From the IMG/VR virus record IMGVR_UViG_3300011724_000025, positions 32,001 through 96,000 of that record: a stretch of 64,000 nucleotides of DNA. One strand, 5' to 3'. The first letter of the stretch is position 1; each line of letters opens with the position of its first letter. The position numbers and the translations under genes are program-made. This DNA comes from a virus (Duplodnaviria; Caudoviricetes). Shown in pieces: positions 15,257 through 54,362 of this stretch. The notes beneath the pieces are model-generated. The model was not told the origin of the DNA. It saw only the letters and a program-made list of their open reading frames with translations, and searched no databases.

Positions 15257-15299
15257 TTTGCCACCGCCTTATTTATACTAATGAGTCAACAGTGTTAAA

Positions 15300-15369
15300 C
15301 AACCGATGTGCGACTTGAACACACCCCAAGATAATCAAAATACCCTGTGCTACCTTACACCAATCAGTT
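15300..15369 (-). tRNA. tRNA-Gln(UUG)-like element, possibly degenerate
   Basis: Full cloverleaf on the minus strand: AACTGAT/ATCGGTT, GTGT/GCAC, GGGTA-TTTTGAT-TATCT, GTGTG-TTCAAGT-CGCAC; no encoded CCA. Confidence 0.65.
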
Positions 15370-15433
15370 ACAATATTTAATTCTCCATTCATTTATGGGA
15401 GACTATAGCAGAAACGCCGATACATGAAATTGC

Positions 15434-32139: not shown

Positions 32140-32400
32140 TATAGATCCTCCCTCTATATGCTTACGGACTTGTGACCGCTTGATTTTTGTCAAGTTCATT
32201 AAAGCAGCCATGATAGGCTGCTCCACTCTGCTGATTATTAAGATGCTCTTTGTTGCGTTTGTAACCACTTCTGAAAATTTTTATTTTCTGCCATGTAATT
32301 TTCCATCCATACTACATGCATCTGACCCTCCGTTAATATGGAGTTACCAAACAAATAATAATTCATCTTGCCACCTTACTTTCTAAATCAAATTCGGTTT

Positions 32401-47026: not shown

Positions 47027-47101
47027 AGGTGTATAGCTCAGTCTGGTTAGAGCGGCGGCCTTATGAGCCGTGTGCCGATAGTTCAAATCTACCTACACCT
47101 A
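47027..47101 (+). tRNA. tRNA-Ile(UAU)
   Basis: AGGTGTA/TACACCT acceptor, GCTC/GAGC D-stem, GCGGC-CTTATGA-GCCGT anticodon arm, GATAG-TTCAAAT-CTACC T-arm (one mismatch); no encoded CCA. Confidence 0.85.
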
Positions 47102-47147
47102 CTCCCGTAATATACGGAAATACATATTAAGAAAGAAGGTTTTTACA

Positions 47148-49676: not shown

Positions 49677-49880
49677 GCAAGGTTGTTTATATGGGATTCT
49701 ATGCGGTCAAATGCATAGGGTCTATTTTTATGCCTATTTCAAGGCGACAGAGAAAATTTGAGGATCGTGAGAATAGTCCTCTCCTTATATGACAGTGAAA
49801 TGTATACGGTGAGATGCGTATATGACAGCGAGGAAGAAATGAAGGTGAAACGCTTCATAAAAACATATAAGGAGGAATTA

Positions 49881-50732
49881 ATGGTAACAAAATTTACAAA
49901 GAAAGAATTATTAAGATTAAGATGCACCGACGAAGAAATATCTCTGGTAATGAAATATCAAAAATTATTACCAATGCCAGATGAGGATTTTGAAATGAAC
50001 GCAAGATCACTTCACGAGTATTTACGTGTCGGTAAAGATATTTCTGCATGGATTATTTCAAGAATCAAAAAATATGATTTTAAGGAAAATACAGATTATA
50101 AAATTTCCTATGAGGCAAGCAACTCCAAATTTGGAGACGCTGATTTTTCAACCTTGTCACAAGCAAAACGTAGTGCGTTAGGGGTTAAAACAGAGTATTA
50201 TCTCACCGTAAATATGTGCAAAGAATTATGCACTATTGAGAACAATGAACTCGGTAGATTAGCAAGAAGATATTTTATTCTTATGGAAGATTTAATCAAA
50301 AGAAATGATGATTGGTGGAGAGTGAGAAACCCACAGCGGCTAAATTATAAACCTATGTGTAAGGCTGTTTCAGAAGCAGTACATAAATCTACTGGAAAAT
50401 ACGGAGATGATTCTGATTTTTCGAGAGAAGCAAATATACTTAACAGAATAGCAACTGGTTGTTCTGCATTAGAAATTAAGCTGTATTTAGGTGTTGGAAT
50501 CAATGAGCTGACTCGTGATAATTTAACTAATGACTATAATGAGAAAATTGCATTCTTGCAGGAACAGAATATATTATTACTCGGAATGGGATTACCAATT
50601 GTCCAGCGTGTCGATATGCTGATTACATTTTTTGATATTAAGTACCCAGATGCAAAACCATTACAACACTATTTTGACAGAGGCTATCTTTTGAAAGCTA
50701 GAGAGAAAATTTTAGAAGAATTGAACCGCTAA
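49881..50732 (+). CDS. AntA/AntB-family antirepressor
   Basis: NARSLHEYL, WI..RIKKYDFKENTDY, YYLTVNMCKEL and ARRYFI motifs. Confidence 0.8.
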   Translation: MVTKFTKKELLRLRCTDEEISLVMKYQKLLPMPDEDFEMNARSLHEYLRVGKDISAWIISRIKKYDFKENTDYKISYEASNSKFGDADFSTLSQAKRSALGVKTEYYLTVNMCKELCTIENNELGRLARRYFILMEDLIKRNDDWWRVRNPQRLNYKPMCKAVSEAVHKSTGKYGDDSDFSREANILNRIATGCSALEIKLYLGVGINELTRDNLTNDYNEKIAFLQEQNILLLGMGLPIVQRVDMLITFFDIKYPDAKPLQHYFDRGYLLKAREKILEELNR

Positions 50733-50753: not shown

Positions 50754-50780
50754 ATATTGCTATGAAAGGAAGTGATACTT

Positions 50781-51791
50781 ATGGCACGAGGACGGATATA
50801 CAACAATTTCTATACCGATGAACTATGGGCGCAAGTAAATAAAGAAAATAAGAGGGTTTTAGATGATTTTCTGGCGGAATATAAACAAAGAAAGAAATCC
50901 AAAGGAACCATCAATGGTTATTTCAATGATTTGAGAATTATTTTTATATATGTTTTAAAGGAACTGGATAATCGGTCTATCCTGTCTTTAAACAAGAAGG
51001 ATTTTCGTGGCATGAGTATTTATTTCTCAGAAGAATGTAATATGTCGTCTAGTAGAGTGAATCGCTTAAAAAGCGCAATTAATAGTATGCTTACGTTTTG
51101 TGAAGAAGATGATGACTACGATTATGAAGTGAATTTTGCAAAGAAAGTAGCTGGGCTTCCAAGAGAACGAGTTAAAGATGATGAAGACGATTTCTTTTTC
51201 ACTTTTGATGAATTTATAAAAGTCAGAGAAATTTTGATTGAAAGAGGAAAACTCCAACATGCAGTATTATGGTCTATAGGTTTTGATTCTGCCGGTAGAA
51301 AAAACGAATTATACCAGATTGAAAAACATGGGCTTGTAGATACAAATAAAACCAATGTCGTTATCGGGAAAAGAGGAAAGAAATTTACTCTTGTATATTT
51401 AGACGATACAAAAGAATTAATTAAAAGATATCTTGACGAGCGCGGAGACGACGATATAGATTCATTATGGATTAAAGGCTCAGGTGAAAACAAGAGTCCT
51501 ATAACAAAAGATGTTATCTATGACAGGGTTTGTTCAATATCGAAGATACTGTCAGAGGTACGAGGAGAAGAATGTAATATATTTCCTCATACGATGCGCC
51601 ATTCCAGATTAGAATGCCTAGCACAAGGTACGGATACGAGATTACTTGATAAAAATGGAGATCCAATTAAATATCCATTAGAGCAGGTACAAGTATTTGC
51701 ACATCATTCGGATGTAAGCACTACTCAGGGGTACTTAAAGAATCATGATGATGATACAATCAATCAAATGTTTGGGTTTATGGATAATTAA
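50781..51791 (+). CDS. Tyrosine recombinase with N-terminal core-binding domain
   Basis: AGRKNE (R), GKRGK (K), PHTMRH, AHHSD and TQGY motifs. Confidence 0.85.
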   Translation: MARGRIYNNFYTDELWAQVNKENKRVLDDFLAEYKQRKKSKGTINGYFNDLRIIFIYVLKELDNRSILSLNKKDFRGMSIYFSEECNMSSSRVNRLKSAINSMLTFCEEDDDYDYEVNFAKKVAGLPRERVKDDEDDFFFTFDEFIKVREILIERGKLQHAVLWSIGFDSAGRKNELYQIEKHGLVDTNKTNVVIGKRGKKFTLVYLDDTKELIKRYLDERGDDDIDSLWIKGSGENKSPITKDVIYDRVCSISKILSEVRGEECNIFPHTMRHSRLECLAQGTDTRLLDKNGDPIKYPLEQVQVFAHHSDVSTTQGYLKNHDDDTINQMFGFMDN

Positions 51792-51799
51792 ATTCCGCC

Positions 51800-52310
51800 T
51801 TTCATCGTCAAAAAGAACCGAGCCAACAACTCAACTACAGAATCTTGGGTATGAAATCCCAACCATGAAGAATTATGAATTAAGTCCCACACATAAACAG
51901 TGGGTACAATATAAAAGTTTCAACGAAGTCGTATGACCATATGGTATAGCTTCGTATATTGGTTCTGACGTGCATGGGAAGTCAGATTAAATGCGGTCAA
52001 TCGATAGGAGCTTGTGACTACTCCATAAATCCTTATGAGCGCAAAGCAGCCAATAGAACTGGTAAAAAGACGTGAAGCGACAACACGTAGGCTGAACCAT
52101 AAGATCGGCAAATAACACTACTGAAAGGCGAAACGCCGTAGCGAATGACTGCTGTGAGGTCAATGGGGAATAGCACAATTCTGACGAGAATGAATTAGGG
52201 TGCTTGGATGGGCGTTATGACCCAGGAAAACAGGTGATGAGGAGTACCCCTGTAGAATATGGACGTGCGTTTTCACGGAAAATTAATGTTAAGGCGAAAG
52301 GCCGATTTAA
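51800..52310 (+). ncRNA. Candidate large structured ncRNA
   Basis: ~500 nt, GC-richer than flanks, no credible ORF, many nested stems and GNRA-like loops. Confidence 0.55.
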
Positions 52311-52362
52311 ATAATAAGAAGAGCAAACTATTCTCCTATCTCATCGAAAGGAGTAAAATGAT

Positions 52363-53238
52363 ATGAAAATAAATCAGAACACAAACTTCGGCACACACAA
52401 CACTTCAGTGCGCCCAGGTAAAATAGAATACATCGTTATACATTACGTTGGTGCCACCGGAGATGCTAAAGCAAATATAAACTATTACAATCAGCGGGCA
52501 ACAACGAATGCGTCGGCTGATTTTTTTGTGGGCTTCAACGGAGATGTTTGGCAGTATAATCCAGATCCATTGACAAGATATTGTTGGGCAGTCGGTGGTA
52601 ATAAACTATCAACTGGTGGCGGATCACTGTATGGAATTGCTAAGAACGCAAATTGTGTAAACATTGAAATGTGTGTTTGCGTACAAGACAATGGTTCTAA
52701 AGCATCAGAATCTAAGGACTGGTATTTTGAAAACGCTACTGTAAAATCGACTATTGAATTAACCAAATATTTAATGGAGTTATATAATATTCCACTTGAC
52801 CGTGTAATTAGGCATTATGATATAACCGGCAAGATCTGTCCGAATCCTTATGTCTATAATCATACTCAGCACACATGGAATGAGTTTAAATCAGCTCTAA
52901 TTGAGATTCCCACTAAGAAATCAGGTTGGCAGCAAGAAGGCGATAACTGGAAATATTACAATGGAGACATAGGCTTACCCATCTGCAACGATTGGGTACA
53001 GGTAGATGGAAAATGGTACTGGTTTGATGGAGCCGGGAACATGATTAAAAACACCTGGTATCAGCACAAGGGAGCATGGTACTATTTAGGCCCTGATGGA
53101 GCAATGTGTACATCTCAGTTAGTTGAAAATTCAGGCAAGATTTATGCTGTCGATGCTGACGGTAAAATGGTTACGGGAGAAATTGTGTTGACCACTTTAT
53201 CTGATGGAGCATTGCAGTACAAAGGATTGTCTAAGTAA
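52363..53238 (+). CDS. N-acetylmuramoyl-L-alanine amidase (Amidase_2) with cell-wall-binding repeats
   Basis: IVIHY, NIEM and RHYDITGKICP motifs; C-terminal W..DGKWYWF / WYYL repeats. Confidence 0.9.
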   Translation: MKINQNTNFGTHNTSVRPGKIEYIVIHYVGATGDAKANINYYNQRATTNASADFFVGFNGDVWQYNPDPLTRYCWAVGGNKLSTGGGSLYGIAKNANCVNIEMCVCVQDNGSKASESKDWYFENATVKSTIELTKYLMELYNIPLDRVIRHYDITGKICPNPYVYNHTQHTWNEFKSALIEIPTKKSGWQQEGDNWKYYNGDIGLPICNDWVQVDGKWYWFDGAGNMIKNTWYQHKGAWYYLGPDGAMCTSQLVENSGKIYAVDADGKMVTGEIVLTTLSDGALQYKGLSK

Positions 53239-53489: not shown

Positions 53490-54362
53490 ATGGTAAAGAA
53501 ATTTACAAAAAGACAGTTATTAGACCAATGTGGGTTTGAAGCTGAAGAGGCTCGGATCATTTTGGATTACCAAAAGAAGTTACCGGTGCTTGTTGAGAAT
53601 GAAGGAATAAATGAGTTCTGCATAAATGCTAAAGATTTATGGATGCAACTTGGTGAACCACAGGGAAAGTTTGCTGATTGGGTAAAAAGAAAATTGGTTT
53701 CCAAGAAAACTAAAGGCGGAGGTCTTATATTTGTTAACGACAAAGATTATTCCACGACTTCTCAAAAATGCGAAATCGCAAATACTAATGGATTTAAGTT
53801 TATAAATGAATATTTGCTTACAGTAGAATGTGCTAAGAACTTATCTATGATGGAAAACACCGATGTAGGTGCCTTGGCAAGAAAATATTTTATTCTCATG
53901 GAGAAGGCGGTTAAAAAGAATGTGGAATGGGAGCTAATCAGGTACCCTCTTCGCGAAGGATATAAGAAGATGCAGGAAGCGTTAAATGTTTATATGAATC
54001 GAATGATTCAAAAAGATGCCGATGATTGGGATTATAAAATTGAAGCAAATGCCCTTAACATTATCGCAACCGGATTTTCAGCACAGGAAATAAGGTTGTT
54101 TGTTGGTTGCAAAGACAATATCACAAGAGACAGTCTTACTGCTACATATAATGAGTATTTGTTGAAATTACAAGAGTGGAACATTCTCTGTCTTGGTATG
54201 AACATGAATAGATATGAAAGATATTCAAAGTTAAAAGAGTTTTTCGATATCGCATTTCCCAACGCGGTACTTTTAAGAGACGATGTGGGAATTGCTAAGA
54301 TAACCGAAAATAAGAATAAATTAATTGAAGAAGCAAGGGTAAAATTACAGGGAGTAGCTTAA
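53490..54362 (+). CDS. AntA/AntB-family antirepressor (paralog of 49881)
   Basis: INAKDLW, FADWVK and ARKYFILME motifs; shared N-terminal KFTK..L...YQK.LP. Confidence 0.8.
   Translation: MVKKFTKRQLLDQCGFEAEEARIILDYQKKLPVLVENEGINEFCINAKDLWMQLGEPQGKFADWVKRKLVSKKTKGGGLIFVNDKDYSTTSQKCEIANTNGFKFINEYLLTVECAKNLSMMENTDVGALARKYFILMEKAVKKNVEWELIRYPLREGYKKMQEALNVYMNRMIQKDADDWDYKIEANALNIIATGFSAQEIRLFVGCKDNITRDSLTATYNEYLLKLQEWNILCLGMNMNRYERYSKLKEFFDIAFPNAVLLRDDVGIAKITENKNKLIEEARVKLQGVA

Follow-up and report, generated by a model that had tools for sequence, protein, structure and literature searches.

What is encoded between the recombinase and the endolysin genes of a large phage, in a spacer that is dense in hairpins? 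The window analysed in this work, i.e. a stretch of 64,000 nt, comes from an IMG/VR provirus record of 126.7 kb that is 71% complete. On its + strand, the whole spacer (51792..52362, 571 nt) runs from a Phage_integrase-family (tyrosine recombinase) ORF of 339 aa (50772..51791, +; PF00589, E 1.4e-7), for which 24 viral relatives were found at 68-95% amino acid identity, to an endolysin of 291 aa (52363..53238, +) that combines Amidase_2 with choline-binding repeats (PF01510, E 2e-18; PF19127, PF19085 and PF01473). ORFs with AntA/AntB antirepressor domains (49758-50732 and 53490-54362) bracket this recombinase-spacer-endolysin unit, a layout also seen in L002, the closest relative. A sequence-only reading of the region had proposed one ornate non-coding RNA of about 500 nt, either of a known class such as ROOL or GOLLD or of a new one. 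We describe here a mosaic of RNA modules, including M2, a short element called the block, and domain D.

The non-coding part of that proposal was borne out, the longest ORFs touching the spacer being of 63 aa at most and none of them being conserved. The GC content of the spacer rises to about 0.45, vs about 0.33 in its flanks. The sequence-only reading had called for an Infernal check, and the Rfam 15 covariance-model scan of the spacer returned no family at the gathering threshold and snoRNA/lncRNA noise only at E<=10, so that assignment to a ROOL/GOLLD-like or any other Rfam class was not upheld; ROOL, GOLLD, OLE, raiA, HEARO, group I/II introns, ribozymes and riboswitches were all without a match in the spacer. 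No match was found by blastn against INPHARED either (50,697 phage records). Elsewhere in the window, Rfam detected a Twister-P5 ribozyme (32164-32232, - strand; 41.0 bits for a gathering threshold of 37.6, E 4.2e-5). Folding energy was rejected as a sign of structure beyond chance, since the MFE z-scores against shuffles were not significant for the whole spacer (-1.07 on the + strand, -1.51 on the - strand) or for its single parts (M2, -1.70; block plus D, +0.63; segment 52057..52126, -0.76).

When diverged loci were fetched, no relative was found to carry all 571 nt as a unit. The conservation profile against all fetched loci divides the spacer into five to six segments, each with its own set of relatives. 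Among the 24 loci fetched via the recombinase, only that of L002 (95% amino acid identity) has two short blocks in common with the window, and the syntenic spacers of relatives contain tRNA arrays or unrelated sequence instead. In endolysin relatives, the gap between recombinase and endolysin is occupied by two tRNA-Ser (L092), by the block and a tRNA-Ile (L095) or by 327-797 nt of unrelated sequence. Contigs of the public runs X2 and X6 match 51955-52676 at about 99% identity and carry unrelated DNA before 51955, i.e. before the 5' edge of M2, and in a near-identical relative from run X9, positions 51779-51878 are swapped for 38 unrelated nt; no RNA run was among those listed for the stretch, and these public-run sequences are contigs and bear on sequence, not on expression. 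The modules are also met in other combinations: M2 without block or D in L207 and L099, and D without block in L191 and L090. The same HU gene lies behind the block in L059 and L026, D being absent from the former and present in the latter. As D occurs without the block in L191 and L090 and the block without D in L059, D is an independent module. In L055, M2 again precedes the block.

M2 (51959..52053, +) is a three-way-junction RNA of about 95 nt found in seven phage contigs. It is built of P1 (51959-64/52048-53), P2 (51965-69/51981-85) and P3, a variable hairpin, and its invariant loops read GUGCAUGGGAA, AGAUUAAAUGYGGUCAAUC and GCGYAAAR. A first alignment comprised five copies (window, L027, L205, L206 and L207), in which 94.1% of the cells were paired, vs 22-46% in slid controls, and both-sided changes affected 7 of the 17 pairs; none of 500 shuffles reached the observed values. 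The covariance model R2 recovered two held-out diverged copies, one in the recombinase-endolysin spacer of L099 and the other directly upstream of the block of L055. With these, i.e. seven sequences, 9/17 pairs were changed on both sides, in a model-fitted alignment that leans towards structure. M2 alone gave no match against Rfam at E<=10, and it was not found by pattern in 401 Lachnospiraceae-family genomes or by covariance model in 151 of them, a weak negative as this search had no positive control. M2 occurs once in the record of the phage.

Domain D (52165..52253, +) is a structured RNA present in nine contigs; its helices P1, P2 and P4 show compensatory changes. Its 5' half is made of GGGRAAUA, P1 (52172-76/52200-04), P2 (52178-82/52187-91) and UUGG, and its 3' half of a P3 insert (52209-12/52221-24) followed by P4 (52230-34/52249-53) with the conserved loop UGAUGAGGAGUACC; the loop of the domain is conserved as GGUGAUGAGG...AC. 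The window, L002, L026, L027 and the metagenome contigs L189-L191 have it in common, at a length of 95-135 nt and with the 3' end ACAGGUGAUGAGGAGUACCCCUGU. The sites at which variable hairpins are inserted are fixed; P3 is one such insert, found in the window and in L191. In a MAFFT alignment of seven D cores, P1, P2 and P4 were paired at 99%, vs 37-61% with partners slid; four pairs were changed on both sides, which 2 of 500 shuffles reached, and the covariation score was 0.241 vs 0.138 (0/500 shuffles). The inner hairpins of type-B D behaved similarly in this test. In a divergent D of L090/L091 (24 bits), P1 reads UGCGU/ACGCA instead, and P4, with the conserved loop between its strands, reads GCGG/CCGC. 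With shorter patterns, such as a 16-mer of the 3' block, all the extra viral matches were chance matches confined to coding DNA. Directly after D in L190 (585-720), tRNA-like acceptor ends and a GGTTCGAATCC T-arm are separated by about 70 nt of extra internal sequence, and ARAGORN calls no tRNA there.

Both M2 and D are thus supported by covariation, belong to no Rfam family and have so far been met in phages only. Their pairings lie on the + strand, because G.U pairs fix the strand, and their helices are kept through compensatory changes, which demonstrates selection on RNA structure. The spacer can be described as a row of RNA modules on the + strand, separable from one another and under selection, at a site prone to swaps; M2 and D are two new covariation-supported phage RNA motifs beside a recombinase. 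The modules are probably co-transcribed with the endolysin leader (52257..52362, +), whose hairpins CGTG-CGTTTT-CACG (52264-77) and GGC-GAAAG-GCC (52293-303) precede a ribosome-binding site and the ATG at 52363. This leader is kept in L189, L057, L099, L089, L090 and L207, with a G-C to G.U change in L057. At the other end, the recombinase-proximal segment (51792..51881, +), with its hairpin TTGGG-TATGAAA-TCCCAA (51845-51862), is conserved in L057 and L207. A short hairpin, GGCG-AAA-CGCC (52127..52137, +), is also found without variation in the syntenic spacer of L207. The segment between M2 and this hairpin (52057..52126, +) contains an ACGTG/CACGT hairpin; it gave no blastn match in any fetched locus and was present in the near-identical X2 and X6 contigs only, its core (52062-52121) being the stretch without relative in the conservation profile. 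A further insert of about 95 nt (AAGCAG…CCACGAAU), common to L027 (8283-8372, - strand) and L055 (~440-530, - strand), lies there between the block and whatever element comes next; the window does not have this insert, which may be one more module.

All the pairings listed in the sequence-only reading were found in the sequence, at or near the places it had given. Four gained comparative support: TCTGAC/GTCAGA (51964-86) corresponds to P2 of M2, GCAC (52173-76)/GTGC (52200-03) and the enclosed ATTCT-GACG-AGAAT (52178-91) to P1 and P2 of D, and ACAGG (52230-34)/CCTGT (52249-53) to P4 of D. ACGAAG (51923-28)/CTTCGT (51950-55), the CTAC/GTAG flanks of GGCG-AAA-CGCC (52127-37) and GGC-GAAAG-GCC were located likewise. 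The large nesting, in which CTTATG (52032-37)/CATAAG (52098-103) encloses CAGCC (52047-51)/GGCTG (52090-94) and ACGTG (52070-74)/CACGT (52084-88), is without comparative support and clashes with the covariation-backed P1 of M2 (UUGGUU 51959-64/AGCCAA 52048-53), which takes up the CAGCC that had been paired with GGCTG. The 3' partners of the CTTATG and CAGCC helices, i.e. the 3' halves of the outer nesting, fall in the segment whose core has no diverged relative.

That the spacer contains structured RNA is supported by covariation in M2, the block hairpin and D, and the part of the claim that did not stand is the single large molecule, as the modules recur separately. A single RNA of about 500 nt folding as a unit, of known or new class, would account for the dense hairpins, the raised GC content and the absence of an ORF, and for the joint maintenance of 51955-52362 in the X2 and X6 contigs and of the M2-block order in L055. 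We nevertheless regard it as very improbable, given that Rfam gave no match, that the fold z-scores were of -1.1 and -1.5, that no diverged relative has the whole stretch, that the modules stand alone or in other combinations (L207, L099, L191, L090 and L059) and that no long-range helix between modules was supported. The spacer resembles ROOL, GOLLD and the tRNA or small-RNA islands near phage lysis modules in being non-coding, GC-enriched, hairpin-rich and borne by a large Firmicute phage. It differs from ROOL, GOLLD, OLE, raiA and HEARO in that it matches none of them, is not conserved as a unit and consists of separable modules of about 25-100 nt, and the original idea of a ROOL/GOLLD-like giant RNA is hereby corrected.

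The likeness to tRNA islands extends to the relatives of this phage, which have tRNAs at the spacer site, and the hairpins might then be decayed tRNA genes left by an array. tRNAs are found at this position in L092, L095, L002, L011 and other relatives, and in L002 a tRNA-Ile stands directly after D; a tRNA of the tRNA-Ile(UAU) type directly follows the block or D in L002, L055 and L027. This origin is nonetheless extremely improbable for the window: neither ARAGORN nor Rfam RF00005 detected a tRNA in the spacer, the architectures of M2, D and the block are conserved and non-cloverleaf, and the endolysin leader, which is conserved in L057, L099 and L189, accounts better for the apparent alignment of the 3' end of the window spacer to the L002 tRNA. 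The only tRNAs of the window are a tRNA-Gln(UUG) (15299-15370, - strand) and a tRNA-Ile(UAU) (47027-47102, + strand).

The block, GUA-GCGAAUGACUGCUGUGAGGUC (52138..52161, +; 21-nt unit 52141-52161), links the spacer to bacterial genomes, where it forms the core of a small RNA preceding one AbiF clade. Its fold consists of a single-stranded UAGYGAAU followed by a 6-bp hairpin, GACUGC-UGU-GCGGUC, placed in the window at 52147-52152/52156-52161 with the loop UGU; the 5' block common to the window and L002 begins with GCGAATGACTGCTGTG.... It has matches in 46 viral contigs, of which about 12 are due to chance in GC-rich coding DNA, and its 20-mer was found in 16 of ~185,000 species genomes, 14 of them from Lachnospiraceae or other Clostridia. 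Among 11 distinct variants, eight retain 6/6 pairs; the loop-closing pair changes from C-G to G-C in L200 and L201, and wobble changes occur elsewhere. Three other identities were considered and rejected: an attP/attB core common with a conserved host gene (the few genomes with the 20-mer always have it in mobile contexts), a phage-specific promoter repeated across the genome (there is one copy per record) and, by eye, an antiterminator pairing between block and terminator (the terminators differ and conserved complementarity is absent).

In bacterial genomes, the block lies 10-14 nt downstream of a TTGACA-N16-18-TATAAT promoter (11-12/12 matches), with a hairpin and T-run terminator about 30 nt downstream; all AbiF-linked copies have 12/12 promoter matches and the terminator. 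A protein of about 350 aa with an Abi_2 domain (PF07751) is encoded downstream in 10 of the 14 Clostridia genomes, and downstream of the remaining Clostridia copies lies the gene of a recombinase (serine or tyrosine), of HU or of a tRNA. Among the 401 family genomes, the block cassette is kept by AbiF homologues of 56, 52 and 37% identity, and its hairpin changes in a covarying manner as AbiF diverges; upstream of the Abi_2 genes that are 27-34% identical, the RNAs are different. The block-linked AbiF clade has 8VZ6 as its sole PDB relative (E 1.1e-10) and an invariant R-N-x-x-A-H motif.

This arrangement recalls known AbiF systems. RCd22 of C. difficile is an antitoxin RNA that neutralises AbiF in cis and in trans, in a layout composed of a SigA promoter, a short structured RNA, a Rho-independent terminator and abiF (bioRxiv 10.1101/2025.04.15.648962), and AbiFr-PbAbiF is a complex of an RNA antitoxin with AbiF (PMC12737573). 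The Lachnospiraceae block sRNA has the same gene architecture as these, and its linked protein is a PbAbiF homologue with the HEPN motif intact. From this architecture and the protein homology to proven AbiF systems, we infer that the block sRNA class acts as an antitoxin. Compared with the type III-like RCd22/AbiFr systems (PDB 8VZ6), the block RNA is of another sequence and fold and its antitoxin role is putative, and the window copy comes with no promoter, no terminator and no toxin. The block also differs from the Rfam abiF motif RF03085, whose consensus is CCCGCCAAGCCUCUCAACGAUGCUCAAAUCGGCGGGU, vs UAGYGAAU and the GACUGC-UGU-GCGGUC hairpin. The AbiF-linked sRNA of L084 and the window core gave no RF03085 match at E<=10; a true match, in L014 (1488-1524), scored 38.2 bits. 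Upstream of the L014 recombinase by about 2.5 kb, this motif is accompanied by a drum RNA (997-1105, 50.6 bits).

In the window, the block matches at 20 of 21 positions and forms 5/6 pairs, a C-to-A change at 52157 creating a G.A mismatch (52151/52157); L002 has the same change at 52157 and a second stem mismatch. The covariance model R1 was built from 15 block cassettes, with L200 and L201 held out. It scored these AbiF-linked copies at 72.7 and 62.2 bits, respectively, and the window copy at 21.0 bits (E 0.019), the other orphan blocks ranging from 26 to 44 bits; L002 excepted, the window has the lowest score among the orphans. No terminator follows the window block and the best upstream sigma-70 promoter match is 6/12. 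The block is single-copy in the phage's own record.

No PF07751 (Abi_2) gene was found anywhere in the 126.7-kb record of the phage. Ten other large phage records with the block were considered (49-206 kb, three of them at least 91% complete), and Abi_2 is absent in 10/11 of the large records, this phage included; the sole exception, G002, has an Abi_2 gene that belongs to a different clade and is not preceded by the block. The orphan phage blocks, which have no sigma-70 promoter or terminator, form part of longer structured spacers; the block is nearly invariant there although the flanks are unrelated. Phage L016 and L199 have one and the same block variant, which in L199 is linked to AbiF. 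The phage copies hence resemble the AbiF-linked RNA and come without a toxin gene, the cognate antitoxin role being read from the architecture.

We propose, at a probability of about 45%, that the spacer is a module array whose block RNA is a putative antitoxin mimic acting against AbiF, a role suggested by the presence of the RNA core in a phage that lacks an AbiF gene. In Lachnospiraceae prophages, the sRNA would be made from a consensus sigma-70 promoter, ended by a terminator and, mostly, placed directly before the gene of the AbiF HEPN RNase. An infecting phage devoid of its own AbiF gene would produce a block-containing RNA, which would bind the AbiF RNase of resident prophages and restrain it; with AbiF held in check, abortive infection would be blunted. 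Expression of the window copy and neutralisation of AbiF by it are both inferred. Our literature searches returned no publication on AbiF-RNA decoys carried by phages.

The closest parallel is the pseudo-ToxI of Pectobacterium phage PhiTE, a toxin-less look-alike of an antitoxin RNA whose activity was established by experiment (Blower et al. 2012, PMC3475682). As in that case, the phage would carry a toxin-less look-alike of an RNA, here that of an AbiF-type RNase, and RNA mimicry is what we propose. The two differ in that ToxN, a protein unrelated to AbiF, processes ToxI, which is made of 36-nt repeats in tandem, and in that the window has a single hairpin core inside a longer structured spacer, known from its sequence. 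The analogy would cut both ways, as the single incomplete pseudo-ToxI of wild-type PhiTE was inactive until expansion (PMC3475682) and the window copy is imperfect and promoterless. Against a decoy we counted this single-copy state, which may be compared with the inactive single copy of PhiTE, and the weakness of the window copy itself (G.A mismatch in the stem, 21 bits, promoter and terminator absent). The block is also found before integrase, HU, tRNA and endolysin genes, so that it could be a general leader element.

In that last case, the block, with or without D and M2, would act in cis on the next gene (processing, stability or protein binding) and would be unrelated to AbiF neutralisation. 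All copies lie upstream of the next gene and on its strand, with at least five unrelated kinds of genes concerned; the distance to the promoter is fixed in prophages; and the same HU gene follows the block without D in L059 and with D in L026. However, a terminator stands directly after the block in all promoter-bearing copies, for which a mostly free sRNA of about 65 nt is expected, as for RCd22. The hairpin moreover co-varies with AbiF divergence, other Abi_2 clades having other RNAs, and integrase-linked copies keep the promoter-sRNA-terminator cassette, as expected after loss of abiF. On balance a cis-acting leader appears rather unlikely.

The imperfections of the window copy could also be those of neutral debris, i.e. 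of a recombination scar in which fragments of a decaying abiF cassette and of other RNA genes are functionless. The site is hypervariable, 52062-52121 is without relative, promoter and terminator are absent, and the stem-breaking mutation is common to the window and L002, which share the lowest scores among the orphans. Decay of this sort is less easily reconciled with the first 16/16 block positions, which a dozen large phages keep intact amid unrelated flanks, with the compensatory changes that keep the helices of M2 and D, or with the 99% identity at which the spacer is kept in other samples, and we consider it unlikely.

The antitoxin-mimic reading can be extended to a multi-decoy anti-defence RNA locus, in which M2 and D would also be mimics or inhibitors directed at other RNA-regulated host defence nucleases and the recombinase hotspot would swap cassettes and tRNAs; this extension is doubtful. 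Should the antitoxin-mimic reading itself be true, the block would define a second class of AbiF-associated small RNA, one that differs in structure from the first and is not in Rfam, and would broaden the RNA side of the AbiF-to-Cas13 story. Toxin-less copies of this RNA would be carried by large phages of gut and wastewater Clostridia, and counter-defence by RNA mimicry would reach the AbiF family, beyond the single ToxIN/PhiTE case.

Finally, in the prophages of the L033/L039/L041 group, a second promoter and a small RNA (…GGAACGTACTTCGGTGTC…) are located about 150-250 nt past the block. This RNA resembles the one upstream of the distant Abi_2 gene of L202, which suggests a stack of different AbiF-type sRNAs at a single prophage locus.
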